Below are positions 10,288 through 30,848 of a stretch of 59,911 nt of DNA, piece after piece. The notes below the pieces were generated by a model. It saw only the letters and a program-made list of their open reading frames with translations. It had not been told where the DNA came from and ran no database searches. Source of the DNA: Patescibacteria group bacterium (GTDB lineage: Bacteria; Patescibacteriota; Minisyncoccia; Minisyncoccales; CAZWNE01); NCBI GenBank assembly GCA_038078735.1, contig JBBTTI010000029.1, positions 1 through 59,911 of the forward strand. The letters are read 5' to 3'. The position numbers were made by a program, and so were the translations under genes. How positions within the stretch are numbered: position 1 is the first letter of the stretch; every line of letters starts with the position of its first letter.

Positions 10288-10362
10288 CTAACGAATTTCT
10301 TGGTTGAGAGCTGCCCTGGTCAAGGGACCGAAATAACCAGTTTGGATTATACCCCTTGTCAT
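10288..10362 (-). pseudogene. orphan fragment of a PG-binding-domain C-terminus
   Basis: Minus-strand translation RGIIQTGYFGPLTRAALNQEIR* parallels the end of the 11212 gene (KGIIQTGYFGPLTRAAVNQKIK*). Shares a 29-nt identical core gctgccctggtcaagggaccgaaataacc. No upstream ORF body. Confidence 0.55.
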
Positions 10363-10367
10363 ACTAT

Positions 10368-10384
10368 TCACCTCCCGAAGGTGA
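10368..10384. repeat. REP-like hairpin downstream of RAYT #1
   Basis: tcacc-tcccgaa-ggtga. The loop is the reverse complement of the loop at 11137-11161. Confidence 0.6.
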
Positions 10385-10394
10385 TTAATCGTGA

Positions 10395-11120
10395 TTATTC
10401 AAGAAAGATAGATTGTGACGATGTTAATTTTTCTTTTAAAAATTCTTTAACGAAAGTTTTATATTCGTTATCATTCCCCCAAAAAGGAGCGTACTGTTCC
10501 AAAATTTCTTTAGAAGCCAGAATTAAAGAATTTCTTTTGCCCAATTTATCCGGAAAACTTGAGAATTCATAATTCTCTAAAAAATTGAATGCTTCTTTTG
10601 GATTTTTTAATCCATTTTCTCTCCATCCTGGTTGAAAAATGTCCAAGGGATTGATCACACTTACATAACGACTCACAGCATGCGATTGAAATTCAGTTTT
10701 AACTGCTATTCCCTTATATCTACTACCGAAAAGAGCGTCTCTTCGTTTGTGAGTTAAATTAAAATATTGCGCATAGCCATTGTTTAATTTTTGGATAAAA
10801 ACAGGTATAGCATTATCAATATTTGGCACTAAATAAAAATGATCGTGGTTTATTACTAATGAAAAGTCTAATAAGGAAACTAATGGGGGATGTTCCTGGA
10901 TTATAAAATTAGTAGGGATTTTCTCTCCGTATAACAACGCTTGCCCTGCTTTTATTGCGTCTTTAGTTTTTACATTAAAACCCTTTTTTCCTAAATTAGC
11001 AATGTAAAATTGAAAAATAAATCTATAACAATCTTCTTTTTGTTTAAAAATTTCTGTTAATGCCCGGGAGATAATATGAACTGGCTGATTTTTTTCAAAA
11101 TTAATTTTTCTATAAGGCAT
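10395..11120 (-). CDS. REP-associated tyrosine transposase-like protein (IS200/IS605 Y1 HUH family), copy #1
   Basis: HUH-type motif VINHDHFYLV. Catalytic-Tyr motif AVSRYVSVINP. About 240 aa. Flanked by hairpins. Confidence 0.75.
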   Translation of the reverse strand: MPYRKINFEKNQPVHIISRALTEIFKQKEDCYRFIFQFYIANLGKKGFNVKTKDAIKAGQALLYGEKIPTNFIIQEHPPLVSLLDFSLVINHDHFYLVPNIDNAIPVFIQKLNNGYAQYFNLTHKRRDALFGSRYKGIAVKTEFQSHAVSRYVSVINPLDIFQPGWRENGLKNPKEAFNFLENYEFSSFPDKLGKRNSLILASKEILEQYAPFWGNDNEYKTFVKEFLKEKLTSSQSIFLE

Positions 11121-11136
11121 AATTATTCAATCACTT

Positions 11137-11161
11137 TTAATTACCTTCGGGAGGTAATTAA
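11137..11161. repeat. REP-like hairpin upstream of RAYT #1
   Basis: ttaattacc-ttcggga-ggtaattaa: perfect 9-bp stem, 7-nt loop. Confidence 0.7.
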
Positions 11162-11211
11162 TTATTGTAGCATATTATTAAGAATCCCTGTCAAATTAAA
11201 TCTATGGATAA

Positions 11212-12801
11212 CTATTTAATCTTTTGATTGACAGCTGCCCTGGTCAAGGGACCGAAATAACCTGTTTGAATTATGCCCTTTGAGGCCTGATATTTTTTAA
11301 CAGCGGCTATCGTTAAAGAGAAATAATTGCCGGTAACTTGAACTTTTAAAAACTGCTGGAGACAGCGGACTTCAGTATTGTTTTTCATTCCGAAATAAAG
11401 ATTGTTCTTCAATAAACAGCTCCCCTGTTGCTGAGCTAAAAGCTGGACGATTTTATTTTGCAATACGGCTATCTGGGCTAAAAGATTTTTTATTAATTCT
11501 TCTTCCGGATTAATTGGCTGGTTGTCGCTGATAATAGAAGCGGTAAAAATAAATTTGGAATAGTTTTCTATACCGTTAAAACCGGCGATTTTTGTTTGAA
11601 GAGAAGGAATAATAACTAAAGACCGATACTTTTTGCCGAAATCAGGAAAGAATTGAGTAGCTCTTTGGCTGCTGTCTAATTTTAAATAATCCAAGGTAAG
11701 GTTGCCCGAATTATCTTCAAGCAAATAAGGAACTTTGAAATTGGTTCTTTCATCGCCGATAAATTCTAATTTAAAAGTTCCTTGGCCGCCGATAAATTTA
11801 TACCAATTTCCAGCCCAATTCTTAACGTAATTGACGACCGATAAGCTGCTGTCGCCGACTGACGGCAAAAAATTAAGCTGGGGAAAAATCCGGAGATTTT
11901 TCAAATTGGGATTCAAATAGCATAATTTGGGGCCCAAATTACAATCATTAACCAAAACAGCGATTGTCCAATCGGTAAAAATTTGACTGAAATCATTTAT
12001 TGAGGCGATCCCTATTGCCGAAGACTTTAATGAATCAGAAAGAATCTTCACTCCATAATAATCAACCATATACTGCATAAAAAGATTTAAAACCCCGTAA
12101 TCGGATGCCTCATTTTTCCATTCAGTCAAAGAATCTTGCGGTTTTTGCAAAAAACTTTTCAACCTCCTTTTCAAATTAGAATTTTCGTAATCGTCATCGT
12201 AACCCAAAATCCTGGGAGCTAACTCCGACCTCATTTCGTTCAGCCAGATTTCCTCTGAAATGCCCTGAATTTTATCTTTTTGGTAAAAATTAATTAAGTG
12301 CGTAAATTCGTGGGCTAAAAATCCTTTTACTAAAGGAGAAGTAACATAGCTTGCGTTTAAATAAACCATCTCTTTCTGATTAGAATCGGGCGATTGCAAA
12401 GTTGGATATTCGTCGCCGGAATTAAAATAACCTCCGGCGTCGCCCTTAATTCTGGTGACTAAAACCGTAATTCTTCCGTCATTATCAATCCCCGGCTTCC
12501 ATTCCGAACCGAATACGCTTCTCAATTTAGGATAAATATTTTCATCAAATTCCTGGGATAAATTCTTTAACGCGGCGGCAAATTCTTTTTTTCCATCTAT
12601 GTCTAATGTTTGATAATAACCGTCCTCAACATAAAAAAGAGCGTTTTCTCCTATTTGATGGAGAAAAGCCGTGACGTTTGAACGGCCCAAATAATCGTAA
12701 GACGGATCAACGTTAAACTCTAAAACGGCCGCCTGGATTGCCGAAGGAATTAAAAAAACCGCCAGCGAGATTAAAAACAATTTAAAAATTCTAACCGACA
12801 T
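11212..12801 (-). CDS. secreted HExxH zinc-metallopeptidase-like protein with coiled-coil plus PG-binding C-terminus
   Basis: Signal peptide ...IPSAIQA. FLAHEFTHLINF (HExxH). LIKNLLAQIAVLQNKIVQLLAQQ coiled coil followed by EVRCLQQFL...YQASKGIIQTGYFGPLTRAAV. Confidence 0.6.
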   Translation of the reverse strand: MSVRIFKLFLISLAVFLIPSAIQAAVLEFNVDPSYDYLGRSNVTAFLHQIGENALFYVEDGYYQTLDIDGKKEFAAALKNLSQEFDENIYPKLRSVFGSEWKPGIDNDGRITVLVTRIKGDAGGYFNSGDEYPTLQSPDSNQKEMVYLNASYVTSPLVKGFLAHEFTHLINFYQKDKIQGISEEIWLNEMRSELAPRILGYDDDYENSNLKRRLKSFLQKPQDSLTEWKNEASDYGVLNLFMQYMVDYYGVKILSDSLKSSAIGIASINDFSQIFTDWTIAVLVNDCNLGPKLCYLNPNLKNLRIFPQLNFLPSVGDSSLSVVNYVKNWAGNWYKFIGGQGTFKLEFIGDERTNFKVPYLLEDNSGNLTLDYLKLDSSQRATQFFPDFGKKYRSLVIIPSLQTKIAGFNGIENYSKFIFTASIISDNQPINPEEELIKNLLAQIAVLQNKIVQLLAQQQGSCLLKNNLYFGMKNNTEVRCLQQFLKVQVTGNYFSLTIAAVKKYQASKGIIQTGYFGPLTRAAVNQKIK

Positions 12802-12809
12802 ATTTTTAA

Positions 12810-12818
12810 ATTATATCA
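12810..12818 (-). promoter_or_regulatory. extended -10 (TGaTATAAT) 8 nt upstream of ATG 12801
   Basis: Minus strand reads ggTATGATATAATttaaaaatATG. No Shine-Dalgarno is possible in the 8-nt gap. Confidence 0.5.
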
Positions 12819-12832
12819 TACCGAGAAGCGAA

Positions 12833-12866
12833 ATCCAAAAACAAAAGACGCCGCAAATGCGGCGCC
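12833..12866 (-). terminator. Rho-independent terminator after the S-layer-like gene
   Basis: GC-rich stem gacgccgc/gcggcgcc (12847-12866). On the minus strand it is followed by ttttgtttttgg. Confidence 0.7.
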
Positions 12867-12928
12867 TTTTGCTTCTCGTCTCCTATCCACAAAGAAAAAT
12901 AGAAGAAAGAATGGTCTTTCAAGAAAAA

Positions 12929-15900
12929 TTAGTATTTCAGTTGAGGTCCGGTAACCGGCATAATCAGAACTTTATCTCTGGCATTGGCAGCTAAGCTGTC
13001 ATCCCAGTAGAAATCACCATCTTCAATACTAATGGTTAAGTACTGATTACTAAGGTTATTCGTATCCATAGCTGAAGTATCAGCCTTTAAGATGTATTTA
13101 ACAGTGCTGTTATCGCCTACTTCAAGAGCTGGATCAGGATAAATAGTTACCCAACCCGTGGAGTCCGTAGCAGTAGCATTGGCATAAGAAATTCCTAAAC
13201 CAAGCACAGTGCTATCACCTTCTTTATAAAGCTTATAGGTTCTGTCAAAAACAGATGAACTGGCGTTGGCATAGGTGCTAATAGTGAATCTGATGGCATT
13301 GACGCTTACGTTAAATCCGGAAAGAGGAGCGCTGACATCAAATCTGAAGACTTCGGTATTGCTGCCAAGCGTTGGAGTAATTGCTGTGCTGCTGACAGTG
13401 ACAGTGGGCTTGGTGGCGTAGAGGTACATAGCATTGGAAATCATTTGACCAGTCGTGGCATTGCTTGAAGTCATAATGTCATTAATACCCAAAGCGCCGC
13501 CCGAACTGCTTCCCTTAGCCACTACGTAATTTGTGGTGTATTGGGTAGCTGCTGTGCTGGTGCCCAAGGCAAAGGTCAAAGTGCTTCCTTCAACAGCGTC
13601 AGTATAAGCTGATGTATCAACTTTCAAGGTTAAAATCTTGCTGCCCGGGTAAGGAATATTAATTTCCTCGCCTGAACCAAAGTTGAAAATCGCTTTATTA
13701 GCTGCGTCAGATCCAATACCAGTTTCTTTCAATAAGGTGTCGCCGTAGTAAAGACCGACTTTACCGGCAACTACGTTATCAGCTAATCCTGCGGTTGTTC
13801 CAATCGCTTCTGTGCCGCCGCGTCTGATGCCAATCTTAAGATTGTCAGCAGAGTTGCTGGCAGATGCTGTTGAATCCATAATTTGCAGAGAAGATTTAGT
13901 GGTAGATGCCCAAAGAGTCAATATGCTAGATGACACGGAGGCCTTTAAATTAGGACAACTGGTCGCAATCTGGTTGGCAACATCTGTTGCGGTTCCCCAT
14001 TGTTGAGTAGTCGTGCTGAAACTACAGGTTTGAGTGGCTCCGTTATCTATGGAATAGTTGAACACTGATGCGCTAGCAGTTGCTAAAGAATCAGGGCTGG
14101 ATGTTGACAAGGCCGCATAACCGACGCTCGTTCCGGTAGCCGCATTACTATTGAAAACATCAAATATCAATTTAGACACAAGAATGTTTTCATTGCTAGC
14201 GACAAATTTCCATTTGCCCAAGGTTACTCCTGTTTTACCCTCTAAAATCTGAGCGGAAATTGGTCGGTTGACCTCATTGGTTATGGTTAAGGTTCCAGAA
14301 CCGCCCAATATCATTCCCTTGCCAATTGTCCCGTTATTAGCTCCTACTATAATAGTAGCTGATTGACCGGAAGCTATTCCGGCAGCGGTAATTTGGCTGG
14401 TAGAGGAAGCTATCCCCAAATAGAAATAAACGGAAGTTCCGGTGCTATTCAAGACCTTGGCCTTAACATCAATAATTTTGGTTGTTCCTTTTGGAATGGT
14501 TAAAGAAAGACCGGTAAAATCAACGTAGTCTGTGTTATTGGCGCCATTAGTCAAGGAAGAGATAGTTAAACCAATTTGAGTTGAACCGTCAAAAAGTTTA
14601 ATGTTGCCAAGCAAATCCTGAGTCGCGTCAATATCTAATCCGGTAAAGGCGTCTCTTGGAGTAGTAATTGTAGCGCTCGTGGTAGCTCCAGCTGAAATCT
14701 TAATTTTGGTAATCTTTACATCTTCAGTCGTAGAGGCGGTAAAGGCAATTTGGGCAAACAGAGCATCTGTAGCGTTCTTGATATAGGTTTGAGAAACAGG
14801 CGTAGAAGCTGCCCTAACTACCAAACCTGGAACCCCTTTGGTCATTAGATTACCGTGAGCAGACCAACTGGCAGCAGTAGCTGTAATAGTCTGGGCAGAA
14901 GCTGCTCCAGACGCTGTGATATAAGCTCCGCTGTCAATATGAGCTGTTAAGTAAGCGGCGTCAGAACCTACCGGAACATCGCCTACTACCCTTATGGTTT
15001 TAGTGGTGTTTTTTGCGATGGTAAGATTGATTCCGAATTCAGCCTTGCCGGATGAAATAACCGAATCGGTCTTTAGAAGAGTGGTTCCATCGTAAAGTTT
15101 GATGTTGTTAATATCAGCCGCATCAGCCGCAACAGTAGTAGCCGTTACATCAGAACTGGTAGAAAAGAGAATATTCAATTGAGAGATAGTAATATTTTCC
15201 CCAGTGGTTATTAAATCAAATTTGGCAAATTCATATTCAGTCACACCTAAGGCATAAGTAGCTGCCGTCGGACTATTGGCTGCCACTTGGACAGTCAAGG
15301 TTCCCTTGGCAATTATGTCATGCAATAGATTAGTGCTTGGAATAGCAGTGCTGGTCCCGCCGTTAACTTCGGCTGTGCCAAGATCATTTTGAGAGCTTAG
15401 ACCATCAGCTTTAACATCAGTGGTCGGATTGGCAAGTTTAAGACCAAGGAAATTATCGGCAGTAGCGGCTCCAGTAGGAACATCTGCCTTTACTATGATG
15501 ATCTTGTTAGCTGATTTAGCAATGTCAAAGAGTCCGGTGCCATCAAGACCGGTAGTGTAAGAGCCGAAAGTCACATAACCGGAAACCATTCCCGTAGAAG
15601 GAACGGGGTTGCCGGCTGTATCAAGAAGTTGGGCTCCCGTAGCAGCGTCGTAAAGCGTAACATTAGAAAAGTCTGAATCCGCAGTGGAGCTGGCTTCTTG
15701 AAATTTAATTTGGGTTATTCTTACCCCTTCATTGGCTCCGGTGGAAAACTTAAAGGCAATTATAGAATTTTGCGGAGTGCCTTTGGCGTAATCCTGAGCT
15801 GAAGGGCTATTGGCCTCATCTTTGGCAATAGTCAAGGTTCCCAAAGAAATAGTAACAGGTGATGAATTTTGAGGCCAGACATCAGTGCCATAAGTTGCTC

Positions 15901-17302
15901 CATATGTTACAACAGAACCTCCGCTATTGGATCCGTAGGCTGTAACATAGGTGTTGTCAGTGATCTCAAAAGCCACTGTCCTATTTTTAATTCCGGATGA
16001 ACTTCCAATATCAGCAGCCACCTTTAATGCTTTGGTGCCGCCGGCTAAAATCTCTAAGGGACTTGAAGATAGGTCAAAGGTTGCTTTGCCATCTGTTAAA
16101 GCGGCAACAGTTGAACCAATCTGGACAGAACCATAGAACAGTTTGATGTTGGAAATATCAGAACCGGTAATTGATCCTACTTGAGTTATTTTAACGGACT
16201 GAATAGTTAAAGCTTCTGTCGCTGAAGCGGTGAGATTGAACCCGGCTATATCCTGTTCGATAGCTCCAGCTATTACTGAACCTCCGGAAGGAGTAGTGGT
16301 AGCAATCTCTAATAATCCCGTGGAAATACCGGCAATAGTCCTTCCGGTGCTTGAGATTGGGAAAACTCCGTCTAAAGCAACTGTGGAAGTAATGTCAGAA
16401 GCAGAAGTAATATCAAACTTCACGGTATCTCCTGCGGTAGCGGCAGTAGCAATGCTGGCTTTAACTGTCAAAACCTTGCAAGAATTAGCTGCAATGGTCC
16501 AGTTTAAAGAAGCAAAGCTGGCTTTATGCGTGGTAGAATTTATAGCTTGAGTTGAACCAACCCGAGTTGTTCCCTCATAAAGCTTGACATAAGATATATC
16601 GGTGTCAGCGGCAATTCCGCCACGAGTTAGAATAATTTTGGAAACAGTATTAGCTGCAGAAGCTGTGCAGAAGTTAATCTTGGAAAAGATTACATCCTGG
16701 GCTCCTTTAGCTACAGTTGAAGCGGCTGGAGTATCAGCTGCTAATTGAACTTTATTTTCACCAACTGGTCCTGGTGTAACAACCGGCGTGGTCGGTGTAG
16801 TTGGTGTAGTTGGAGTTGTCGGAGTGGTTGGAGTGGCAGCTAACAGCGAATTTAATTTCGCCCTTGAGCTAGCGCCAACAAAACCAGTTCCTTTTGTCAA
16901 GCCGGATGGTGTCAAAATATCCGCGGCATATTTTTCCTGGGCTTTAATAACAGCTATTTTGGTTTTTGCGCCAAATAAAGTTGTTTCGTTCCCGGGAGAA
17001 CCGGCGCCAGTTGACGCAATTTGCGTATCAGCTGACATGTTCAATGTTGCCTGCAAACATTTGACATCACTGCCTGACATTCCTTGTTTTAAGTTTCTGG
17101 TGAAAGTAATTCCCGAACACGCAGCCGGAGCGCTCCCAGTTGTTTGCTGTGAAGCAGCTTGCAACTGAACTAATTGCGCCTGCAGTGCTACGATTTGGGC
17201 CATCAAATCATCTATGGTGGTGGCCCCAACCGGACCTGCCAACATAACAGAAACAGTCAAGGTCGTTACAATCGCAAAAATCTTTTTACTTATAGTAGAC
17301 AT
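12929..17302 (-). CDS. 1457-aa S-layer/cell-envelope-like protein with N-terminal coiled-coil plus PG-binding module and repeated beta-sandwich-like units
   Basis: Signal peptide ...MLAGPVGA. DDLMAQIVALQAQLVQLQAA, then GMSGSDVKCLQATLN...KIAVIKAQEKY. (TTP)n linker. At least seven units carrying the motif (I/V)xxIKLYDGxTxxG. Confidence 0.7.
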   Translation of the reverse strand: MSTISKKIFAIVTTLTVSVMLAGPVGATTIDDLMAQIVALQAQLVQLQAASQQTTGSAPAACSGITFTRNLKQGMSGSDVKCLQATLNMSADTQIASTGAGSPGNETTLFGAKTKIAVIKAQEKYAADILTPSGLTKGTGFVGASSRAKLNSLLAATPTTPTTPTTPTTPTTPVVTPGPVGENKVQLAADTPAASTVAKGAQDVIFSKINFCTASAANTVSKIILTRGGIAADTDISYVKLYEGTTRVGSTQAINSTTHKASFASLNWTIAANSCKVLTVKASIATAATAGDTVKFDITSASDITSTVALDGVFPISSTGRTIAGISTGLLEIATTTPSGGSVIAGAIEQDIAGFNLTASATEALTIQSVKITQVGSITGSDISNIKLFYGSVQIGSTVAALTDGKATFDLSSSPLEILAGGTKALKVAADIGSSSGIKNRTVAFEITDNTYVTAYGSNSGGSVVTYGATYGTDVWPQNSSPVTISLGTLTIAKDEANSPSAQDYAKGTPQNSIIAFKFSTGANEGVRITQIKFQEASSTADSDFSNVTLYDAATGAQLLDTAGNPVPSTGMVSGYVTFGSYTTGLDGTGLFDIAKSANKIIIVKADVPTGAATADNFLGLKLANPTTDVKADGLSSQNDLGTAEVNGGTSTAIPSTNLLHDIIAKGTLTVQVAANSPTAATYALGVTEYEFAKFDLITTGENITISQLNILFSTSSDVTATTVAADAADINNIKLYDGTTLLKTDSVISSGKAEFGINLTIAKNTTKTIRVVGDVPVGSDAAYLTAHIDSGAYITASGAASAQTITATAASWSAHGNLMTKGVPGLVVRAASTPVSQTYIKNATDALFAQIAFTASTTEDVKITKIKISAGATTSATITTPRDAFTGLDIDATQDLLGNIKLFDGSTQIGLTISSLTNGANNTDYVDFTGLSLTIPKGTTKIIDVKAKVLNSTGTSVYFYLGIASSTSQITAAGIASGQSATIIVGANNGTIGKGMILGGSGTLTITNEVNRPISAQILEGKTGVTLGKWKFVASNENILVSKLIFDVFNSNAATGTSVGYAALSTSSPDSLATASASVFNYSIDNGATQTCSFSTTTQQWGTATDVANQIATSCPNLKASVSSSILTLWASTTKSSLQIMDSTASASNSADNLKIGIRRGGTEAIGTTAGLADNVVAGKVGLYYGDTLLKETGIGSDAANKAIFNFGSGEEINIPYPGSKILTLKVDTSAYTDAVEGSTLTFALGTSTAATQYTTNYVVAKGSSSGGALGINDIMTSSNATTGQMISNAMYLYATKPTVTVSSTAITPTLGSNTEVFRFDVSAPLSGFNVSVNAIRFTISTYANASSSVFDRTYKLYKEGDSTVLGLGISYANATATDSTGWVTIYPDPALEVGDNSTVKYILKADTSAMDTNNLSNQYLTISIEDGDFYWDDSLAANARDKVLIMPVTGPQLKY

Positions 17303-17391
17303 TTGTATTTTTTTATTTTAAATTATATTATTCGAAATTTCCACTTTTGGCCGTATCGACCATAGAAAAACAGCCATCAAAATTTAAATAA

Positions 17392-18126: not shown

Positions 18127-18154
18127 TGATAATTAAGCGTTAGCTAATTATGAA

Positions 18155-18175
18155 GAAGAGATTTATCTCTTCGCC
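18155..18175 (-). repeat. GCGAWGAG-type hairpin (a)
   Basis: Minus strand reads ggc-GAAGAGAT-aa-ATCTCTTC. Lies between the sigma and anti-sigma genes. Confidence 0.6.
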
Positions 18176-18195
18176 TACACTAATTATGACGGATT

Positions 18196-18696: not shown

Positions 18697-18705
18697 TTGT
18701 ATTTA

Positions 18706-18727
18706 GGCGATGAAGCGTTGCTTCATC
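18706..18727 (+). repeat. GCGATGAG-type hairpin (b)
   Basis: ggc-GATGAAGC-gtt-GCTTCATC. Confidence 0.6.
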
Positions 18728-18732
18728 TTCAA

Positions 18733-18764
18733 AGCTAGATAGGACACGCGTGTCCTATCTAGCT
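18733..18764. repeat. 32-bp perfect palindrome
   Basis: agctagataggacacg|cgtgtcctatctagct. Overlaps the stop codon of the 18759 ORF and lies upstream of the sigma gene. Confidence 0.85.
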
Positions 18765-19259
18765 TTCCCTTATTTTTAGTTGATAGAATGTCTCGTTTCT
18801 CTCCCCCATCCTTTCAATCACTCCCTGATTTAATAGCTGATCAAAATCCCGCCTTAAAGTTCTTTTAGTAACTTCCGGTAAAATCTGCTTTACTTGCCAA
18901 ACCTGAGCCCGGCCGTTTTCTCTTAAAAAAGCCATTATCTTACCCTGCCTATCCGGCAGTTTTTCTTCCTCTTTAAACAAAGATAAGGAAGATTGGGGTT
19001 TTATTTCTCCATCCAGCTTACTATATTCTGCCTGAAGGTTCAAGACATCCTGAACAGCCACCCAGTTTTGGACTTTAACCACCTCAAAAAAGCTATCCAG
19101 CACCGCCAACTTATCCAAAGTTTCCGGAGAACCGTTCTCCGCTAAAATATCATCGGCTAACTCCCGCATTTTGTATCTCAAAGGTTCTTTTTTTGGGAAA
19201 AGCAAAGTCATCCGGTAAATGCCTTGAGTAAGCTGGATTAGATAATTTTTCTCCATCAT
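18759..19259 (-). CDS. winged-helix (DeoR-N-like) DNA-binding protein
   Basis: C-terminal VWQVKQILPEVTKRTLRRDFDQLLNQGVIERMGERNETFY. Start moved to the MMEKNY ATG at 19259, which removes the overlap with the upstream gene. Confidence 0.5.
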   Translation of the reverse strand: MMEKNYLIQLTQGIYRMTLLFPKKEPLRYKMRELADDILAENGSPETLDKLAVLDSFFEVVKVQNWVAVQDVLNLQAEYSKLDGEIKPQSSLSLFKEEEKLPDRQGKIMAFLRENGRAQVWQVKQILPEVTKRTLRRDFDQLLNQGVIERMGERNETFYQLKIRES

Positions 19260-19276
19260 CCATAATTTAGCAGAAA

Positions 19277-22200
19277 TTACGGCGGAGAGCAAACCGCGGG
19301 AAGAATCGTAGAGGAATATAATTCAAAAGTTAAACCGCTTAACTGGGGACACCCTCCGATAATCTTAATTGCCGTTGGTACATTTTTAAAATGAGAATTG
19401 GCGATAATTGTTTCTGGAGAATTTTCAATAAAAAGTCCGTAAGTTGAAGAATTTTTCATAAGCAAATTTTCGAATTCAACTTTTGTTCCCGAAACAACAA
19501 TCTCTCCTAGAACATCTACCCACCCAGGCGTTACTCCCCCATTAGCAATGATAACATTTTTCAAAGAAGAATTATGACCGAGGGGACTAAAATAAATTCT
19601 ATCCCAATATCCGCTAGAATAGGGAGAGGTGCTGGTTCCATCATTGTTGGTATCCCCGCCATATTCATCATCGTAAAAAGAAGTAAAGACAATTTTTTCT
19701 AACGAGCTTGAAGCATTTAAGGTACCGTAAATCTCTAGTCTCCCATAGATTGAGAATTTAATTATTACCCCCGGCTCAACGGTTAAAATAACATTTTCGG
19801 CCACTTTTAAATTATTAATTAAATAAGGTAAATCTTTGGTCATTGTCCAGTTTTGACTGATTGTGCCAAGAAGATAAATCCCATTCAAAGCATTGTTAAT
19901 AGCAATATTATTTTTAAAGATGGGGTAACTATCTAAGACAGAAATTGGGCTTTGAAGATAATTTATTCCTTCAAAAGTATTGCTCTCAATAAGGGCGGTA
20001 GTTCCTCCCCTTAAGAACATTCCGGCATAGGTGTTTTTGAAAAATGAATTTTTAATCGTTGGACTCCCGCCAGTAATATTAATTGCCTCATTTGAAGCAA
20101 TATTTTGAATTGTCAAATTTTCTATTGTGCTTGACGAGTTAATCAATTTTATTCCTGCGCCATTGACATTGTCTAAAATAGAATTTTTAAGAACAATTCG
20201 GGTTGAGTCAACAATAATTAAATAAGAATCACTTTGTTTTATTCCGCCATATCTCATTTGAACATAATCTAAAATAGAACCCTGACTTGAGGGAGCGAAA
20301 TATATCCTGTTCCACCCCTCTGAAATTAAAAAAGAAGTAAAAATAATTTCTTTGCCAACTTCACCTCTGGCTATCAAAGTTCCTCTGACTATTAAATTGT
20401 CGAGACCGACCCAATAATCTTGCCTTTTAAATTTTATTTCAACCCGGGGTTCAATTCTCAAAGTTTTTGCTTCAGGAATTGTCAAACTATTAACAATATA
20501 AGGACTGCCAAGATAGGTCAAAGTAATTTCGGGAAATTCGGCAAAAGGCAAGCTGGAAATATTCGTTGAAGTAGCTGAAACTGAATTTTGGGCTTTTGGC
20601 GTGCCGTTAATTTTATTGCCGCTGGCATCCAATCCGTTTCTAGTTAATAAATTATTATTCGCCCAGTTAGTAGAAGTGGCGCTGGACGTTGCGCTGATTC
20701 TCTCCATTGAAATATAATTAGGCGAACTCGTTCCTGCCGGCCAGCCAGTAGAAAAATCAACCAAATCAATTAAAGTATTACTGGCGTCTCTTAATTCTAA
20801 TTTCTCGCCGTTATTGCTTAAAGCGCCCGTGTAAATCCGATCTTCAACTAAATCAGTAGTGTTAGAAGCTGTTCTCTCTAATAAATAATAACTATTAGCT
20901 AAAATACTAGAAGTTGAAAAAGTGATATTCGGACTTCCATCGCTAGAAATTAATCGCCAGCCCGTAATGTCAATAGTTGAAGTGGCATTATTGTAAAGCT
21001 CAATCCACTCGTCGCTGGAATTAGTGGCACTAGTCCCCATCCAGGCGATTTCATTAATAACTACGGTTAAAGAAGGGATTTCCGGAGCAGTTATATTAAT
21101 GGTTGTTGTGGCGCTACTAGTCGCGCTGTTATTATCAACCACAGTTAAACTAACCAGAAAATTGCTGGAAAAAGAATAATTATGAGTGGTTGTGGCATAA
21201 ACGGCGGTTGAGGTAGAATTATCTCCAAAATCCCAAATATAACTTGTAATCGTCCCATCAGAATCGCTTGAGGATGCGGCGTCAAAAATAATCTCTTGGC
21301 CAATTAAGGGGCTTTGTGGAGTAAAAGAAAAACTGGCAACGGGTATTTGATTTATGGGCAACGGCGACGGCGAAGACGGCGTTTGATTTTTGGCTCCCGG
21401 CGTCGGTGTCTGAATTTCGAAATCTGTTTGGTTATTATCCGTATCAATATAATTTTCGGTACTAGTTGACCACTTTCTCCCTAAACTTTGATTTTCTATT
21501 GGATTTTGAGAAAAAGCCGTGCCTTCCAAAAAAGGATTGGTACTCGTACCCCACGCCACAGCGTCAATTAAATTATCTTTTTTATCAAACAAAATTACGC
21601 TATTGTTTTTTGCTAATGTCTGGGTGCTAATAATGTTGGCTGAAATTTGAAGAGAATTAGAAGCAAAATCCGAATTCAGCCACAAAAAATAACTTTGAGC
21701 TAAAATTACGCTGCCTGTCGGAAATAAACGAACTGAAGATTCGCTACCCGTAGAACTCCTTTTCTTTAACTGAAAGCCGGAAAGATTTACGCTATTGGTC
21801 GCTGGGTTATATAATTCTATGAAATCATAGTCAGTGGAGCTGGCGGTTTCAATTTGGACTTCAGAAATTAAAATTTTGGGTGGGATATACGGCGGCTCTG
21901 ACGCCGGTGGTGGTGGCGCTGTGCCATAATTAAAAACAACTACCGGCTCTGATTGAGATTTGACCTCAATCAATTTCTCGGCAGCTGTTACGACTTCGTC
22001 TTTAGCTTGTTGTAGATGTTTGACATCCACAGTATTTAGCGGAGTTCCGATCTCCGTAGAAACTTCTTTGATTTCTCCCGTTTCTCCCTTTTCACCCTTT
22101 TTACCCTTTTCACCCGTCAATTCATCAGTTTGTTGAGATAAAACATCAATTTTTTCCGCAATATCATCTAACAGCTCTTGAATTTCGCTTGCTGTTAACT

Positions 22201-23227: not shown

Positions 23228-23861
23228 CGGCGATAAATTTTCGAACAAAATCATCATTAAAGTGGCTAAATATATATATTTTATAATCCTTCCCAAAAAA
23301 ATAATATTCATCGGTAATCAATTCGTTACCAGTTTTTGACTTAAACACCGTGTATAATTTAAAACCCCTTGAATCACCGATAATAAAATCTTTTATTTTT
23401 GGTGATGATTCCGACCTCTCCGTTTTGGCATAAGGAGAATATATTTTTTGAAATTCTTCTACAAATTTATTTAAATCAATAATATTATTTAATCTTAAAA
23501 TCCTCGTAAGCATATAATCTAGTGATCCAAATCCCCCCACATATAAATTGGTTTCGGATACTATCTTTTTAGAGAAGTCTTCTTTTGTTTGTTTTTTTAT
23601 ACTTAAATCCGTGTCTATCACATCTTCGTATTCAATCTTTTCAATTCCCTTCCAGGCAGAGGGGACTTTAAACTCATAGCCGTCTATTTTATTTATTACT
23701 TTATATTCGTTGCCAAAGCCGAATAAATTTTTTGCCACTTTCACTCCGGCTGGCAAAATTTTATTTAATGCCTGGATATCTTTTTGGTTATTCTGCCAAT
23801 AAAAAAAGCCGCTTCCGGCTAAAATCAAAACAAAAACTAAAATCCCAATTTTTTTTACCAT
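23214..23861 (-). CDS. N-terminally anchored hypothetical protein
   Basis: TM segment IGILVFVLILAGSGFFYW. No recognisable domain. Confidence 0.45.
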   Translation of the reverse strand: MVKKIGILVFVLILAGSGFFYWQNNQKDIQALNKILPAGVKVAKNLFGFGNEYKVINKIDGYEFKVPSAWKGIEKIEYEDVIDTDLSIKKQTKEDFSKKIVSETNLYVGGFGSLDYMLTRILRLNNIIDLNKFVEEFQKIYSPYAKTERSESSPKIKDFIIGDSRGFKLYTVFKSKTGNELITDEYYFFGKDYKIYIFSHFNDDFVRKFIADGKW

Positions 23862-23878
23862 ACTTTATTTTACAACAA

Positions 23879-23922
23879 ATTAAAAATCACCGCCATAACC
23901 CCGTCAATGTCCCTGTGGATAA
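23879..23922 (-). promoter_or_regulatory. promoter with an adjacent DnaA-box-like 10-mer
   Basis: Minus strand: GTTATCCACA (23923-23914), 6 nt, TTGACG (23907-23902), 17 nt, TTTAAT (23884-23879), 17 nt, ATG 23861. Confidence 0.5.
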
Positions 23923-23932
23923 CTTCTTCTAT

Positions 23933-23959
23933 ATTTATCGAAGTCGGACTTCAATAAAT
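23933..23959. repeat. RAYT #2 hairpin e1
   Basis: atttat-c-gaagtc-g-gacttc-a-ataaat. It encodes the last codons (IEVRLR*) of RAYT #2. Confidence 0.75.
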
Positions 23960-24672
23960 ATGTCTTGGAATAGTTTAAGATTTTTCTTATATTGCTTTAT
24001 CCAGTCAATAAAAAATTTCTGATAACCTTCTGGACCGCCGAAAAAATTGGACAAAAAATCAGTATTAATTAGGGAAGGAAAATTTTTAATCCCCCAGTAA
24101 TCTTGATGACTTGACCAGCGGTTCTCTTTGTCTGATAAAAATTTTAAGGCGTCTTGAATTTCTGAATCATTAAGTCCTGTTTTCTTCCAGCCGGGTTTCC
24201 ATAATTCTAAAGGATTGGAATGAATATAACAAACCAATTGCCCGACCTGAGTATCATTTATTACTTGAACTTTCTTATATTTCCCCTGGAATAAAACTCC
24301 GCTTCTCTTATTTTTCAAATTAAAATAATTAGTGTATCCTGTTCCAAATTTTTGATGAAACTTCGCTAAATTATCTTTTTCTCTAGGCGAAGAAAATAAA
24401 TGGTAATGATTATCCATTAAACACCAAGCAAATAAATCTACCAGCGATTCCCTTGTTTTATTTTTAATAATAATTTCGCTACTTGCTATGGCGCTATTTA
24501 TCGAAGTCGGACTTCCATAAATATTCTTAAAACGGTGATTAAGATTGGTAACAGCGTTTTTATCGTTAAATTCGTAGATATCGTGAATCCCACGGAAATA
24601 ATCTACTTTATTTAAAAAAATATTCCTTTTTTCGACTCCTCTATTAAAAGTGTGCCAAACTCCGTATTCCAT
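23935..24672 (-). CDS. REP-associated tyrosine transposase-like protein, copy #2
   Basis: N-terminal HTFNRGVEKRNIF. HUH motif MDNHYHLF. Tyr motif LVCYIHSNP. Confidence 0.75.
   Translation of the reverse strand: MEYGVWHTFNRGVEKRNIFLNKVDYFRGIHDIYEFNDKNAVTNLNHRFKNIYGSPTSINSAIASSEIIIKNKTRESLVDLFAWCLMDNHYHLFSSPREKDNLAKFHQKFGTGYTNYFNLKNKRSGVLFQGKYKKVQVINDTQVGQLVCYIHSNPLELWKPGWKKTGLNDSEIQDALKFLSDKENRWSSHQDYWGIKNFPSLINTDFLSNFFGGPEGYQKFFIDWIKQYKKNLKLFQDIFIEVRLR
24496..24522. repeat. RAYT #2 hairpin e2, inside the RAYT #2 coding sequence
   Basis: atttat-c-gaagtc-g-gacttc-c-ataaat. Read in frame as YGSPTSINS (aa 52-60 of the ORF). Confidence 0.8.
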
Positions 24673-24698
24673 ATAATCAATTATATCAATCTAATAGA

Positions 24699-24725
24699 TT
24701 TTATGGAAGTCCGACTTCGATAAAT
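24699..24725. repeat. RAYT #2 hairpin e3
   Basis: ttttat-g-gaagtc-c-gacttc-g-ataaat. This is the reverse complement of e2 at 26 of 27 positions. Confidence 0.8.
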
Positions 24726-24735
24726 TTGCCTTATT

Positions 24736-27407
<2,672 letters not shown>

Positions 27408-27435
27408 AGTTTTATATTAACATAATGCTTAATAA

Positions 27436-27475
27436 GTGGACATCGTATGTCCACTTTCAGTATGTCCACTTTCAT
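27436..27475. repeat. RAYT #3 hairpin f3 plus a duplicated 3' arm
   Basis: gtggaca-tcgta-tgtccac, followed by a second atgtccactttca copy. Confidence 0.75.
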
Positions 27476-27501
27476 GTTGCTGTTCATGGGTGTATTGAAA
27501 T

Positions 27502-27813
27502 TTAACGGCTGATGTAGATGGCGCGACTGGTTGTTTTATACGTGCCGACGGATTTAACCCCCGGGGCTAAAATCGTTACAGAATAAGCGGCATTATTTCC
27601 CAAACTGCCCGGTCCCTGGCTGCCATCGTATAAATTTTTTTCAATCCCGGTTTCGGCGGCATAAAAAGCTAAAACCGAATCCCCGATGTCTTTGATCATT
27701 TTTGCCTGGCTTGAAAGAATTAAATTTATTCCCAAAGCCGAAGAAAACAAAATACCCATTATGGCTAATGATAAATATAAAATAACGCCTTTGTCTGAAT
27801 TTTTAATTTTCAT
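27502..27813 (-). CDS. PilX-N-like minor pilus protein
   Basis: N-terminal hydrophobic KGVILYLSLAIMGILFSSALG, then an amphipathic segment. Last gene of the minor-pilin operon. Confidence 0.45.
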   Translation of the reverse strand: MKIKNSDKGVILYLSLAIMGILFSSALGINLILSSQAKMIKDIGDSVLAFYAAETGIEKNLYDGSQGPGSLGNNAAYSVTILAPGVKSVGTYKTTSRAIYISR

Positions 27814-27853
27814 TTTTCATCAAATTTTTTATTTTATAAAAAATGCAGATAAA

Positions 27854-27873
27854 GATGAGATCTATCTCATCGC
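27854..27873 (-). repeat. GCGATGAG-type hairpin (c)
   Basis: Minus strand reads gc-GATGAGAT-ag-ATCTCATC. Includes the TGA stop of the 27867 gene. Confidence 0.6.
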
Positions 27874-28391
27874 ATTATATCCAAGTTTCTTTGGGTAACT
27901 GCGGTTTGGACTTTAATTTTTGACTGGTTATTGCCTTCAATATTTAAGAATAAAGTGACCTTGGGCTGATTATCGTCTGTTTGAGTCCAACCAAAATCTA
28001 CGATATCAAACGACAAAACATTAAGGTGGCTTGAAGTCAAAGGAGAAACAACTCCTCCTTTGTTCTCTTTCAATTGGCCGCTTTCTAAATAAAATTCCTG
28101 GCAGACACTATTATAATTTAAAAATTTTATTCCAGTGGCGGTTTGTGAGTAATTTAGATTACTAGGAATACAAATACCGCCGGTGTCTTTTTTTGCCATT
28201 CTGATCGCCCGGGACATATATTCTAAAACATAAGAAGTCTGGCCTAAAAGTTCTTGAGTTGATGATATTTTCCTCTGACTTTGCAAGATTTGGGTAAACA
28301 CTGCCGCGAGCGAACCGATGAGCAAAGAAAAAATCCCCATCGTCACTATCATTTCCACTAATGTAAAGCCATTTTTTTTCATTGTAGCCAT
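27867..28391 (-). CDS. type IV minor pilin (PilW-like)
   Basis: Prepilin motif KKNGFTLVEMIVTMGIFSLLIG. Confidence 0.7.
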   Translation of the reverse strand: MATMKKNGFTLVEMIVTMGIFSLLIGSLAAVFTQILQSQRKISSTQELLGQTSYVLEYMSRAIRMAKKDTGGICIPSNLNYSQTATGIKFLNYNSVCQEFYLESGQLKENKGGVVSPLTSSHLNVLSFDIVDFGWTQTDDNQPKVTLFLNIEGNNQSKIKVQTAVTQRNLDIMR

Positions 28392-28798
28392 TTATATAAA
28401 TTTTCTTGAACAATTACTTTATGGGGCCCTCCTCTCTCTTGCCAAGAAACCTCAACCGAAACATTTAAGATATTAATGCCATCAGGCGTAATAATTGTTC
28501 TTCTTTGAAAGTTATTTGGAGTTCCATCTATGAAAACAACCGGCTGCCAGCCGCTGGAAACTATATTCGCATCCCAATTGACGCCGCCGACGCCCTTGTG
28601 AATTTTAAGAAAATTACTGTCTCTGATTTCTCTTATTGATTCAATGCCCTCTTGGGCCAGATAAGTCGCTGTTAGTTTGGGGGAAATAATCTGGGTGCCG
28701 CCTATAGTTTGATTAACTAAAGCAAAAACCGCGCCCACTCCCATGGTGACTATAAATATTGATATGATTGCCTCTAAAAGAGTAAATCCCTTATTCAT
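28379..28798 (-). CDS. type IV minor pilin (PilV-like)
   Basis: MNKGFTLLEAIISIFIVTMGV. Confidence 0.7.
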   Translation of the reverse strand: MNKGFTLLEAIISIFIVTMGVGAVFALVNQTIGGTQIISPKLTATYLAQEGIESIREIRDSNFLKIHKGVGGVNWDANIVSSGWQPVVFIDGTPNNFQRRTIITPDGINILNVSVEVSWQERGGPHKVIVQENLYKWLQ

Positions 28799-29267
28799 TA
28801 TTAATTAACCCCGCTTTATTGATTCTGATATTTTTGCTTTGATTATCATTGGTTAAAGTAATGGTGGTTGTAGAATTGATGTTTACCGTTGGATCCGGAG
28901 GCGTAAAAGTAATTATTAGAGGAGAAACCGGGGAAAGAACGCTGATCTTAACTCCCTTTTCCATAAAAAAAGTCTCGACTGCTTCTCCGGAATCAAGGAC
29001 TTGATCGTTATTTAAATCGGCAAATAAAATATAACTGGAGGAATTTGTTTCAAGTTTTATTCCGTAGGCTCCAGCCGACATCGCCATTTCTCGGGCTTTG
29101 CTTAAATCCTGGACTAATTTAACAGTTGACCTTTCCAAAGCCATATTTTTTTCGCCGGCATTAAAATTAGGGAGGGCAATGGCAGAAAGCAACAAAATAA
29201 TCCCGGTAACAACAATTAATTCCACCAAGGTGAACCCATTCGTCACTTCAAGCCCCTCTTTTTTCAT
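28791..29267 (-). CDS. type IV minor pilin (GspH/FimT-like)
   Basis: TNGFTLVELIVVTGIILLLSAIALPNF. Confidence 0.7.
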   Translation of the reverse strand: MKKEGLEVTNGFTLVELIVVTGIILLLSAIALPNFNAGEKNMALERSTVKLVQDLSKAREMAMSAGAYGIKLETNSSSYILFADLNNDQVLDSGEAVETFFMEKGVKISVLSPVSPLIITFTPPDPTVNINSTTTITLTNDNQSKNIRINKAGLINNE

Positions 29268-30019
29268 AAAAATAAATTAAAATAAAAATTTATTATTTTT
29301 TCACCCCAAAATAAAGCGGAAAATGCGCCGATTGTTAAAAATGGGCCGAAAGGAACTTCCGATTTTAAAGTTTTCTTGCCGGAAATTATCAGTCCTATCC
29401 CCATTATAGCACCTAAAAATATTGCCAAGAATAAGGCTACGATAATGTTCGGCCAGCCCAGAAATAAACCCATCAAAAAAGCCAGCTTTATGTCGCCTAT
29501 TCCCATCCCCTTGCCCCGAGAAATTAAAACAATCGCCAGAAAAAACCCGGCGGCCCCGAAAGCGGACGCTAGGAGGTTCGACCTCCCAAGGAGGTCGAAC
29601 CTCAACAAGTCGTAAGCTAAAGCCACCCCGATAGCCGGGAAAACAACTTTATCGGGAATAATATAATGCTTTAAGTCATAAACAAAAATAATAATAAAAA
29701 AACAACTTACCAGTAATAAATATGCCATGGCATAAATATTACTATTGGTTAATAATATGGAAAGAAAAATTATTCCAGTGAATAATTCGACTAGAGGATA
29801 TTGCCAAGAAATTTTTTGAGAACAATAGCGACATTTACCGCCCAAGATTAAAAAGCTGAAAATAGGGATTAAGTCTTGCCAGGATAATTGATGTTTGCAA
29901 TTGGGACAAAAAGATCTGCCTCTTAAAAAACTCTTTCCCTGTTCCAGGCGATAGATAACGCAATTCAAAAAACTTCCTACCATCAACCCAAAAACAAAAA
30001 TAAAAATCACCATTGTCAA
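29264..30019 (-). CDS. pilD: prepilin peptidase (A24 family)
   Basis: N-terminal Cys box CPNCKHQL...CRYCSQKI. Catalytic-Asp contexts YIIPD and GIGDIKL. Multiple TM segments. Confidence 0.9.
   Translation of the reverse strand: MTMVIFIFVFGLMVGSFLNCVIYRLEQGKSFLRGRSFCPNCKHQLSWQDLIPIFSFLILGGKCRYCSQKISWQYPLVELFTGIIFLSILLTNSNIYAMAYLLLVSCFFIIIFVYDLKHYIIPDKVVFPAIGVALAYDLLRFDLLGRSNLLASAFGAAGFFLAIVLISRGKGMGIGDIKLAFLMGLFLGWPNIIVALFLAIFLGAIMGIGLIISGKKTLKSEVPFGPFLTIGAFSALFWGEKIINFYFNLFL
29573..29603. repeat. 31-bp palindrome embedded in frame in pilD
   Basis: gaggttcgacctcc-caa-ggaggtcgaacctc: perfect 14-bp arms. Encodes RFDLLGRSNL. Confidence 0.9.
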
Positions 30020-30052
30020 ATTATATCATAAATAAACATTCCCGGCTGTAAA

Positions 30053-30077
30053 TTAAGCGACTTCGGGAGTTACTTAA
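30053..30077. repeat. REP-like hairpin downstream of RAYT #4
   Basis: ttaagcgac-ttcggga-gttacttaa: imperfect stem, same loop as 11137. Confidence 0.6.
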
Positions 30078-30088
30078 ATTGGCCGATT

Positions 30089-30811
30089 TTATTCTAAAAA
30101 AACAGATTGAGAAGAAACCGTTTTTTCTTTTAAAAACTCTTCAACAAATTTTTGGTATTCTTCCCCATTCCCCCAAAAAGGAGCATACTGCTCCAAAATT
30201 TCTTTAGAAGCCAGAATCAAAGAATTTCTTTTACCTAATTTATCCGGAAAACTTGAAAATTCATAATTCTCTAAAAAATTAAACGCTTCTTTTGGATTTT
30301 TTAATCCATTTTCTCTCCATCCCGGCTGAAAAATATCCAAAGGATTAATTACGCTCACGTAACGGCTGACCGCAAAAGATTGGGGATCGCTCTCTACTGC
30401 TATGCCTTTATATCTACTCCCAAAAAGAGCGTCTTTTCTATTGTAAAGCAGATTAAATGACCTAGCGAAACTATCATTTAATCTATGCATAAGAATAGGT
30501 ATTGCCGTATCTATGGTCGGCAATAAATAAAAATGATAATGATTCATAATTAAAGAAAAATCTAATAAATGAACTAATGGCGGATGCTTTTTAATCACAA
30601 ATTTCTCGGGAATTTTTTCGCCCTGCAATAAAGCTTGACCAGCTTTTATCATGTCTTTTATTTTAAGATTAGTATCTTTTCTGCCTAAATTTACGGCGTA
30701 ATACTGGAAAACAAAACGATAGCAATCATCTTTTTGTTTAAAAATGTTTGTCAGAGCCCGGGAGGTGATATGGACAGGTTTATCTTTTTCAAAAAATTTT
30801 CTATAAGGCAT
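30089..30811 (-). CDS. REP-associated tyrosine transposase-like protein, copy #4
   Basis: HUH motif IMNHYHFYLL. Tyr motif AVSRYVSVINP. The C-terminal 75 aa or so are nearly identical to copy #1. Confidence 0.75.
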   Translation of the reverse strand: MPYRKFFEKDKPVHITSRALTNIFKQKDDCYRFVFQYYAVNLGRKDTNLKIKDMIKAGQALLQGEKIPEKFVIKKHPPLVHLLDFSLIMNHYHFYLLPTIDTAIPILMHRLNDSFARSFNLLYNRKDALFGSRYKGIAVESDPQSFAVSRYVSVINPLDIFQPGWRENGLKNPKEAFNFLENYEFSSFPDKLGKRNSLILASKEILEQYAPFWGNGEEYQKFVEEFLKEKTVSSQSVFLE

Positions 30812-30823
30812 AAATTTAGATTA

Positions 30824-30848
30824 TTAAGCGACTTCGGGAGTCACTTAA
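30824..30848. repeat. REP-like hairpin upstream of RAYT #4
   Basis: ttaagcgac-ttcggga-gtcacttaa. Direct repeat of 30053-30077. Confidence 0.65.

Follow-up and report, generated by a model that had tools for sequence, protein, structure and literature searches.

Four RAYT-like genes with locus-private hairpins within 20 kb of a groundwater Patescibacteria contig

The partnership between RAYTs (REP-associated tyrosine transposases, or TnpA_REP) and repetitive extragenic palindromes (REPs) has been studied almost only in Proteobacteria and Cyanobacteria, where a genome holds one or two RAYTs and hundreds of REPs. Several tnpA_REP genes may occur in one genome, each with a REP family of its own (Quentin et al. 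2018, PMC6006769), and known RAYT groups average 1.3-1.8 copies per replicon (PMC5581495). Here we analyse positions 1 to 59,911 of contig JBBTTI010000029.1 (assembly GCA_038078735.1, Patescibacteria group bacterium), hereafter the window, in which four RAYT-like genes named R1 to R4 lie within 20 kb, each with short hairpins of its own. The host is an ultra-small bacterium of the Candidate Phyla Radiation (CPR) from groundwater (Hainich). The balance in the window is the opposite of that in the studied systems: tiny, streamlined CPR genomes carry many old, conserved paralogues and short, low-copy hairpins that diverge together with them. The four cassettes are a compact natural set in which to study hairpin recognition by a Y1 HUH enzyme, and the in-frame copies found in RAYT-like and housekeeping genes bear on the colonisation of coding sequence by palindromic repeats.

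The RAYT-like proteins and their family

The first-pass annotation, made from the letters of the window, had described four divergent, co-oriented RAYT paralogues with the HUH and tyrosine motifs of Y1 transposases. The four open reading frames (ORFs) are indeed homologous, and every motif quoted for them is found. R1 (10395-11120, minus strand, 241 aa) has NHDH, within NHDHFYL, and RYVSVINP; R4 (30089-30811, minus, 240 aa) has NHYH, within NHYHFYL, and the same RYVSVINP. R2 (23935-24672, minus, 245 aa) carries NHYH (NHYHLF) and CYIHSNP, and R3 (26757-27407, minus, 216 aa) carries NHSH (NHSHNL) and FYIMANP. Their homology spans the full length of the proteins. They are not, however, four equally divergent lineages: R1 and R4 share 77% identity by tblastn, against 27-34% for all other pairs (E 1e-19 to 1e-35), and we therefore recognise two subfamilies, A (R1, R4) and B (R2, R3). 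No fifth paralogue was found in the window by tblastn. A 22-nt match at 40510-40531, considered as a candidate fifth paralogue, was rejected as a chance or ATPase-gene match, tblastn finding nothing there.

The C-terminal 66 residues of R1 and R4 (SRYVSVINP...APFWGN; 10395-10694 and 30089-30388) are identical. The underlying DNA differs at 16 of 193 aligned positions, mostly synonymously, which argues for strong purifying selection and not for recent gene conversion. The sequence that R1 and R4 have in common causes public assemblies to break at 30293-30314.

Y1_Tnp (PF01797) is the sole Pfam match of the four proteins, and no helix-turn-helix (HTH) domain was detected in them. R2 scores 24.8 bits against a gathering score of 23; R1 (16.7 bits), R4 (15.9) and R3 (13.2) stay below it. 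Membership of the Y1 transposase family thus holds by score for R2 only, and for the other three as homologues of R2 with invariant HUH and tyrosine residues. In an alignment of 35 family members, of which 25 match Y1_Tnp at E <= 0.01, both HUH histidines (H89 and H91 in R2 numbering) and Y149 are invariant, as are N118, R123, F128, N153 and W162.

R2, the one of the four that was modelled, gave with this alignment an AlphaFold2 model of mean pLDDT 82 and pTM 0.79. The proteins, of about 240 aa, consist of an HUH/Tyr core followed by a helical C-terminal tail; in the model Y149 sits on a helix (140-152) that is C-terminal to the HUH motif. In the PDB the model comes closest to 4er8, in which the E. 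coli RAYT is bound to a REP hairpin (E 4e-6); next come the TnpA structures of IS608, ISDra2, IS200 and Sulfolobus. Foldseek gives a probability of 1.00 and target-normalised TM-scores of 0.52-0.65 for 4er8, 2a6m, 2vjv, 2xm3, 2f4f and 2ec2.

The tyrosine motif points the same way. R2 (YIHSNP) and R3 (YIMANP) have Y-x3-NP, while R1 and R4 have YVSVINP, with one extra residue. Y-x3-NP is the signature of class 2 (TnpA_REP), whereas Y-x3-Q marks the IS200 transposases of subclass 1.1 (Quentin et al. 2018, PMC6006769). R1-R4 are thus probably remote homologues of class-2 Y1 HUH endonucleases/transposases, of the RAYT / TnpA_REP kind, and form a CPR-specific clade.

The search for homologues gave 1,858 proteins (E <= 0.001), nearly all from metagenome-assembled genomes (MAGs) of Patescibacteria/CPR, especially Nealsonbacteria. 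Their names are mostly 'hypothetical', with a few 'transposase' or 'RayT'. Annotation misses the family: three of the four genes lie below Pfam/NCBIfam cut-offs and most public records say 'hypothetical'. Scanning the GTDB species representatives gave 75 loci, again nearly all in CPR genomes.

Hairpins at, inside and away from the genes

All ten hairpins listed at first pass are present. We searched both strands of the 59,911 bases with up to 4 mismatches and found no other copy of any set, so that each is private to its locus as had been proposed. The upstream hairpin of R1 (11137-11161; TTAATTACC-TTCGGGA-GGTAATTAA) ends 17 nt before the ATG; the downstream one (10364-10388) lies 7 nt past the stop codon in inverted orientation. 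The two belong to one family, with 4/25 mismatches, and the predicted inverted pairing is real; the orthologue at locus L008 is arranged likewise. R4 has two direct copies, again as predicted: the upstream one (30824-30848; TTAAGTGACTCCCGAAGTCGCTTAA on the gene strand) is identical to the copy beside the orthologue at locus L010, and the downstream one (30053-30077), 12 nt past the stop codon, differs from it by 1 mismatch.

R2 and R3 have three copies each. Those of R2 are 25-30-nt imperfect palindromes. The upstream copy (24698-24727), inverted relative to the other two, lies between ligA and R2, 9 nt past the stop codon of the former and 26 nt before the ATG of the latter; the internal copy (24495-24524) is in frame and encodes NIYGSPTSINS, in a loop of pLDDT below 50; the downstream copy (23932-23961) overlaps the last codons (EVRLR) and the stop codon. 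The downstream copy is read in another frame than the internal one, so that conservation is at the level of DNA and not of peptide. R3 has three direct 19-nt copies: upstream at 27436-27454 (GTGGACAT-CGT-ATGTCCAC), internal at 27232-27250, in frame and encoding DSGHAMSTN, and downstream at 26730-26748 (GTGAACGT-CGC-ATGTTCAC), 9 nt past the stop codon and just before the ligA ATG (26718). The copies at 26730 and 27232 do differ by a compensated A-T to G-C pair, as had been noted; a third difference yields a G.T wobble. Both sets had been said to bracket their genes, which is true of the flanking copies but not of the middle ones (24495-24524 and 27232-27250), which lie in frame inside the ORFs at about codons 50-60. 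Behind the upstream hairpin of R3, ATGTCCACTTTCA is tandemly duplicated (27447-27474); its first copy is the right arm of the hairpin plus 5 nt, and the duplicate (27462-27474) holds a spare half-site at 27462-27469.

The same architecture recurs across the family. At most of the 75 GTDB loci a palindrome is repeated upstream and downstream of the gene, with a stem that differs from locus to locus; locus-private hairpins are the family-wide rule. Members of subfamily A (R1, R4 and loci L008-L011) have flanking copies only, all with the CTCCCGAAG apex. Of 67 full-length GTDB genes, 34 show the upstream/internal/downstream triple of subfamily B and a further 6 the internal copy with one flank; the 67 homologues have 27-60% protein identity. 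The internal copy falls anywhere between codons 46 and 75, the downstream copy at or just past the stop codon. Across 59 genes, protein distance and hairpin distance are correlated (Spearman rho 0.40, permutation p <= 0.0005), part of which shared ancestry alone could yield.

Within a locus, the internal copy is always within 3 of 15 central positions of its own flanks, whereas 7-9 of 15 differ between loci. The internal copies occupy all three codon phases and encode different peptides. R3-like genes have either GHAMS or GHRMS at this place, according to the orientation of the 3-nt loop, GCG or CGC. In the R2 model, the internal copy (residues 50-71) is the sole long segment with pLDDT below 50. 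At loci L023 and L064 a double, REPIN-like palindrome is found in frame at codons ~66-67 instead of the single one.

The internal copy is most likely a tolerated insertion of the hairpin into a permissive loop, and we propose that, being acted on by the same enzyme as its flanks, it stays matched to them. It might instead be a required element of R2 and R3, either a self-target by which the protein throttles or switches its own gene, or a protected master copy. Its presence in 34 of the 67 homologues, with 6 more partial cases, over a range of 27-60% identity, and its constant match to the flanks, speak for such a role, which would be compatible with the mechanism proposed below. We nonetheless hold it to be doubtful: the position drifts from codon 46 to 75 through three phases with no conserved peptide, the loop is modelled as disordered, subfamily A lacks the internal copy yet is at least as conserved, and similar in-frame hairpins occur in an unrelated prepilin peptidase gene. 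In the described cases, moreover, in-frame REPs in RAYT genes were read as neutral (PMC6006769).

Copies also exist far from any RAYT-like gene. We scanned metagenomes with the R4-type 25-mer TTAAGTRACTCCCGAAGTYRCTTAA and found it at 27 loci, of which two (L095 and L100) adjoin an R4-like gene. At the remaining 25 the hairpin stands alone as a single copy without the gene, in varied intergenic contexts that are mostly very short. Two of these gene-less hairpins lie 1 nt past two different tRNA-Ala genes (L093, 1295-1319; L106, 1720-1744). Eleven of the 27 loci, on 9 contigs, come from one sample, Ga0209541, which also includes the sister genome, the L010 Nealsonbacteria MAG (100% identity over 12.2 kb); R4-type copies in this sample number 4 at the gene and 11 elsewhere. 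The two copies next to tRNA-Ala genes are also from this sample. In 55 GTDB loci, the density of a locus's own hairpin at more than 250 nt from the gene is 0.36 copies per 10 kb; for the hairpins of other loci it is 0.013, and the enrichment over this cross-locus control is 28-fold. Together, the gene-less R4-type copies and this enrichment suggest that the hairpins behave like low-copy REPs. On a Yonathbacteria contig (L057, 3508-9982), nine GTACCAAGGTTAAACCTTGGTA copies stand in the 6.5 kb upstream of a RAYT-like gene, four of them in the last 215 nt, a local REP cluster compared with the 2-3 copies per gene in the window. A count based on contigs (48-nt stretches, Logan contigs, four groundwater runs) was discarded as unable to detect hairpin-only matches, since its R4 control missed the known downstream copy on another contig.

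Could the palindromes simply be cis-regulatory sites, such as operators of dimeric proteins, RNA stability elements or attenuators, the Y1 protein having some other role? The hairpins lie very near start and stop codons; their orientation flips freely between loci, as expected of a symmetric double-stranded site; and a promoter-like site follows the downstream hairpin of R4. G.T wobbles show no strand preference (34 sense-strand G.T against 32 A.C mismatches), a lack of bias that also led us to reject a structure acting in mRNA only. The downstream hairpin of R3 resembles a terminator, yet it is the only T-tailed one of the ten. The terminator reading, raised as a caveat at first pass, is accordingly rejected, and the missing T-tails at 9/10 hairpins also count against a cis-regulatory role. 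Identical 25-mers at a dozen unrelated gene-less intergenic sites, two of them 1 nt past tRNA-Ala genes, require a copying mechanism, and further copies are read in frame within ORFs, where each of the three codon phases occurs. We therefore regard a purely cis-regulatory role as very unlikely. An Rfam scan of the window found four tRNAs only and left the hairpins unmatched. Perfect palindromes (arm >=8, loop <=7) number 39 in the window, compared with 12.6 +/- 4.1 in shuffles.

Inheritance, movement and proposed mechanism

An orthologue of R4 (76-78% identity) lies between the pilin and prepilin peptidase genes in both L010 (Nealsonbacteria) and L009 (labelled Buchananbacteria), and its hairpin there is the same or nearly so. 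The ratio of non-synonymous to synonymous substitution (dN/dS) is ~0.1, with saturated dS, for the pairs R1-R4, R4-L010, R4-L009 and R1-L008; R1 and the L008 gene have 72.6% identity and a dN/dS of ~0.09. For R4, dN (0.127) is lower than for the adjacent prepilin peptidase (0.239). R4 is inherited vertically and domesticated. The cassettes lend themselves also to the question why reduced genomes hold on to such genes, with purifying selection acting on them more strongly than on an adjoining gene for pilus biogenesis.

Other cassettes come and go. The first-pass annotation had suggested a synteny comparison for variable presence: R4 occupies the same site in L010 and L009, but R3 is variable. 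Its cassette (26720-27501, minus strand) is bounded by a 7-nt direct repeat, TTGAAAT, and between the stop codon of a pilin-like gene and the ligA ATG the window has 775 bp where L010 has 2 nt. This 775-bp insert comprises a leader, the upstream hairpin, R3 and the downstream hairpin. The two TTGAAAT copies (26720-26726 and 27495-27501) may be a target duplication, microhomology or chance. Upstream of a 215-aa gene, the window has R2 and L008 an R1-like gene. R1 itself is bracketed by an 85-nt direct repeat. One copy (11198-11282) is the real 3' end of a 529-aa gene (11212-12801); the other (10274-10358; 81% identity) is an orphan copy of that end, reading ...GIIQTGYFGPLTRAALNQEIR (...GYFGPLTRAALNQEIR). 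The repeat points to an arrival of the cassette in which the gene's 3' end was duplicated or carried along. The R3 indel, the exchange of R2 for an R1-like gene and the R1 repeat together indicate that whole cassettes are gained and lost, though rarely. Long flanking direct repeats were considered as a general cassette feature and rejected: they are confined to R1 (85 nt) and, among the 75 relatives, L016 (44 nt), and at the other loci the flanking repeat is the hairpin unit itself. In four groundwater runs no presence/absence or excision variants were seen; one contig spans 22500-30314 without differences, the joints listed are low-similarity contigs of other organisms, and the sole assembly break is the one at 30293-30314.

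These gains would also fit autonomous IS200/IS605-like insertion sequences (ISs), with the hairpins as their ends and the whole cassette moving by single-strand 'peel and paste'. The clean presence/absence of R3 against the sister genome, the direct orientation of the R3 and R4 flanking hairpins, like that of IS ends, the two paralogues alternating upstream of the 215-aa gene, the 85-nt repeat around R1 and the additional fold matches to the TnpA of IS608 and ISDra2 can all be read in this way. But the window has no near-identical copies, the closest pair being R1/R4 at 77% with saturated dS, and the multi-copy loci L027, L043 and L048 likewise hold divergent paralogues. The syntenic site of R4 is kept across species, the tyrosine motif is of the NP type (class 2) and not Y-x3-Q (PMC6006769), the R1 hairpins are inverted, as is the upstream hairpin of R2 relative to the downstream one, and no tnpB-like ORF stands beside any of the four genes. 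Most dispersed copies, besides, are bare 25-nt hairpins without a gene. Autonomous mobility is, in our judgement, quite unlikely.

We rather favour a REPtron-like arrangement, as the likely account of the four loci: each protein would recognise its own hairpin in single-stranded DNA and nick and rejoin the DNA beside it through the HUH motif and the tyrosine, thereby maintaining and occasionally copying the hairpin in trans. Binding, cleavage and the agent that moves the hairpins are here inferred from the characterised RAYT and IS200/IS605 enzymes. Each cassette carries its cognate palindrome a few to ~60 nt upstream of the start codon and again at or just past the stop codon; in subfamily B a third copy is placed in frame within the loop, modelled as disordered, that separates helix A from the HUH strand. 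Recognition would occur when the DNA is single-stranded, for instance on the lagging-strand template, and cutting and rejoining would use an HUH-bound metal and the tyrosine. In this way a low-copy hairpin family could be spread and homogenised in trans without the gene itself moving. Protein and hairpin would diverge together, so that co-resident paralogues would come to have no substrates in common. The genes, long-lived under purifying selection, would be domesticated or tolerated symbionts and not active insertion sequences.

Several observations weigh against this account. The NCBIfam model NF047646 (REP_Tyr_transpos; cut-off 80) gives R2 only 37.2 and R3 26.9 bits, and does not match R1 or R4. 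A profile search of PDB sequences reached at best E 0.3 (ISDra2 TnpA), which makes the clade remote and its placement a matter of fold comparison, not of sequence alone. The relative orientation of the upstream, internal and downstream copies varies across the family, a poor fit to strict strand-specific recognition. GT[AG]G is the canonical 5' guide tetranucleotide of REPs; the hairpins of R1, R2 and R4 do not have it, and the upstream and internal copies of R3 start with GTGG, which is there part of the stem. The tag is, however, also missing in subclasses 2.6 and 3 (PMC6006769). The 60-kb window contains no gene-less copy of any of the four hairpins, and the orphan-bearing contigs of Ga0209541 are assigned to the L010 genome indirectly, from the shared sample and a GC content of 0.41-0.45.

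A bolder extension is that CPR bacteria host a vertical RAYT-hairpin 'ecosystem' of many lineages, in which the enzyme keeps the copies matched by copy-correction or a gene-conversion-like activity. If so, in-frame copies in its own and in housekeeping genes would also be kept in step, the internal copy would be a functional self-target or master copy, and the four cassettes would make a natural 4x4 specificity matrix. We consider this unlikely.

The density of the cassettes had been singled out at first pass. Only 3 of 75 related loci have at least two paralogues within +/-10 kb, two each and never more, and known groups average 1.3-1.8 copies per replicon, so that four in 20 kb is indeed unusual. 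The sister MAG carries at least five paralogues over three contigs. The novelty of co-resident systems was overstated, because it is already on record that a genome can hold more than one RAYT, with a separate REP family for each (PMC6006769).

R1-R4 are on the same strand as the surrounding genes, which by their Pfam labels encode large surface proteins, a sigma factor, an NAD-dependent DNA ligase, minor pilins, a prepilin peptidase and pilins. The prepilin peptidase gene (29264-30019, minus) itself contains a gene-less inverted doublet, GAGGTTCGACCTC/GAGGTCGAACCTC (29573-29603), in frame and encoding RFDLLGRSNL. It belongs to another hairpin family, one that flanks RAYT-like genes at L026 and L031. 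The same site holds a different 31-nt palindrome, GAAGTCCGACATCCCAGGGATGTCGGACTTC, in L010 (~11090-11130) and a single hairpin, GGAAATCGGATTTCC, in L009 (~1760-1780), where the gene is 6 codons shorter; the palindromic structure is thus kept while the stem sequence differs in each of the three species.

Further palindromes have no RAYT-like gene beside them. The intergenic REPIN-like doublet AGAAGCTTAGCTTCT/AGAAGCTAAGCTTCT at 43308-43346 has a second family copy, also intergenic, at 53371-53411; both probably belong to a paralogue outside the window. The doublet has no match at <=1 mismatch in the fetched loci, and by eye its core resembles the L042 hairpin. Other distinct palindromes or doublets lie at 1080-1117, 53028-53071, 18731-18766, 19125-19141, 47177-47199 and 50308-50330; among them are GAGAAACTCAGTTTCTC/AGGAAACTGAGTTTCCT and GAAATCCGATTTC/GAAATCGGATTTC, a hairpin with a 15-bp stem between the sigma-factor gene and the next gene, and CGGAGAACCGTTCTCCG, in frame (ENGSP) inside the ORF 18759-19292. 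The other long repeats of the window are a 98% tandem repeat in a surface-protein gene (3720-4019 / 4035-4334), the 92% common 3' end of two genes (2091-2390 / 4551-4850) and adjacent pilin paralogues at 86% (31171-31357 / 31712-31898).

Comparison with known systems

The REPtrons of E. coli (TnpA_REP) and Pseudomonas (RAYTs) have the most in common with the CPR cassettes: a Y1 HUH core with Y-x3-NP, a flanking hairpin of their own, dispersal of gene-less hairpins to intergenic sites (for the R4-type hairpin in the sister genome's sample, and on average over GTDB loci), a separate hairpin family for each co-resident paralogue, and vertical inheritance with no near-identical duplicates. The CPR proteins differ in being very weakly similar in sequence and ~75 aa longer, with a helical tail. 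Their hairpins are short, near-perfect palindromes with 3-5-nt loops, lacking the 5' GT[AG]G at R1, R2 and R4; hairpin copy numbers are low (tens at most, not hundreds) and paralogue density is much higher.

In subclass 2.4 (Bertels group 4; Cyanobacteria, Bacteroidetes), a cognate palindrome is likewise found in frame in a peripheral, variable region of the transposase ORF, and the R3 hairpin (GTGG...CCAC) resembles the 'double foot' type of REP. In that subclass the insertions fall between the HUH and tyrosine motifs, and REPs also occur in frame in unrelated genes (PMC6006769). The CPR insertion, in contrast, lies N-terminal to the HUH motif, after helix A and ahead of the HUH strand; the hosts differ, the CPR proteins are longer, and about half or more of subfamily B carry the internal copy.

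From the comparison of motifs, the CPR clade appears to resemble subclass 2.1 (Bertels group 1, 'TIRYT'), whose median length is 238 aa (PMC6006769), close to the ~240 aa found here. The matching motifs are NH[YF]H, FQ after the HUH (LFQG in R2 and R3), Y[IV]H.NP and SS, conserved in the proximal tail (WSS/FSS). Subclass 2.1 reportedly has terminal inverted repeats in place of REP-like hairpins and an HTH-like distal tail, whereas the CPR genes have cognate hairpins and no detected HTH.

With the TnpA of IS200/IS605 elements (IS608, ISDra2) the CPR genes share the HUH/Tyr fold and hairpins near both gene ends. They differ in the NP-type tyrosine motif, in having no identical copies and no tnpB, and in the synteny of R4 kept across species. 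Rickettsia palindromic elements (RPEs), of 100-150 bp, and other palindromic repeats are also tolerated in frame in ORFs; both PMC1779305 and PMC10969869 make mention of them. To our knowledge, no cognate transposase is known for RPEs. The in-frame palindromes described here are 13-30 nt long and tied to RAYT-like genes, and they occur in two RAYT-like genes and the prepilin peptidase gene.

Among the top-ranked literature on RAYT or COG1943, no paper joined the subject with CPR, Patescibacteria or Parcubacteria. Earlier work has already described genomes with several RAYTs that each have a distinct REP family, and REPs lying in frame within RAYT genes (PMC6006769). What this analysis adds is the CPR clade, its short, tagless, low-copy palindromes, the internal copy placed before the HUH motif and widespread in one subfamily, and the density of paralogues.

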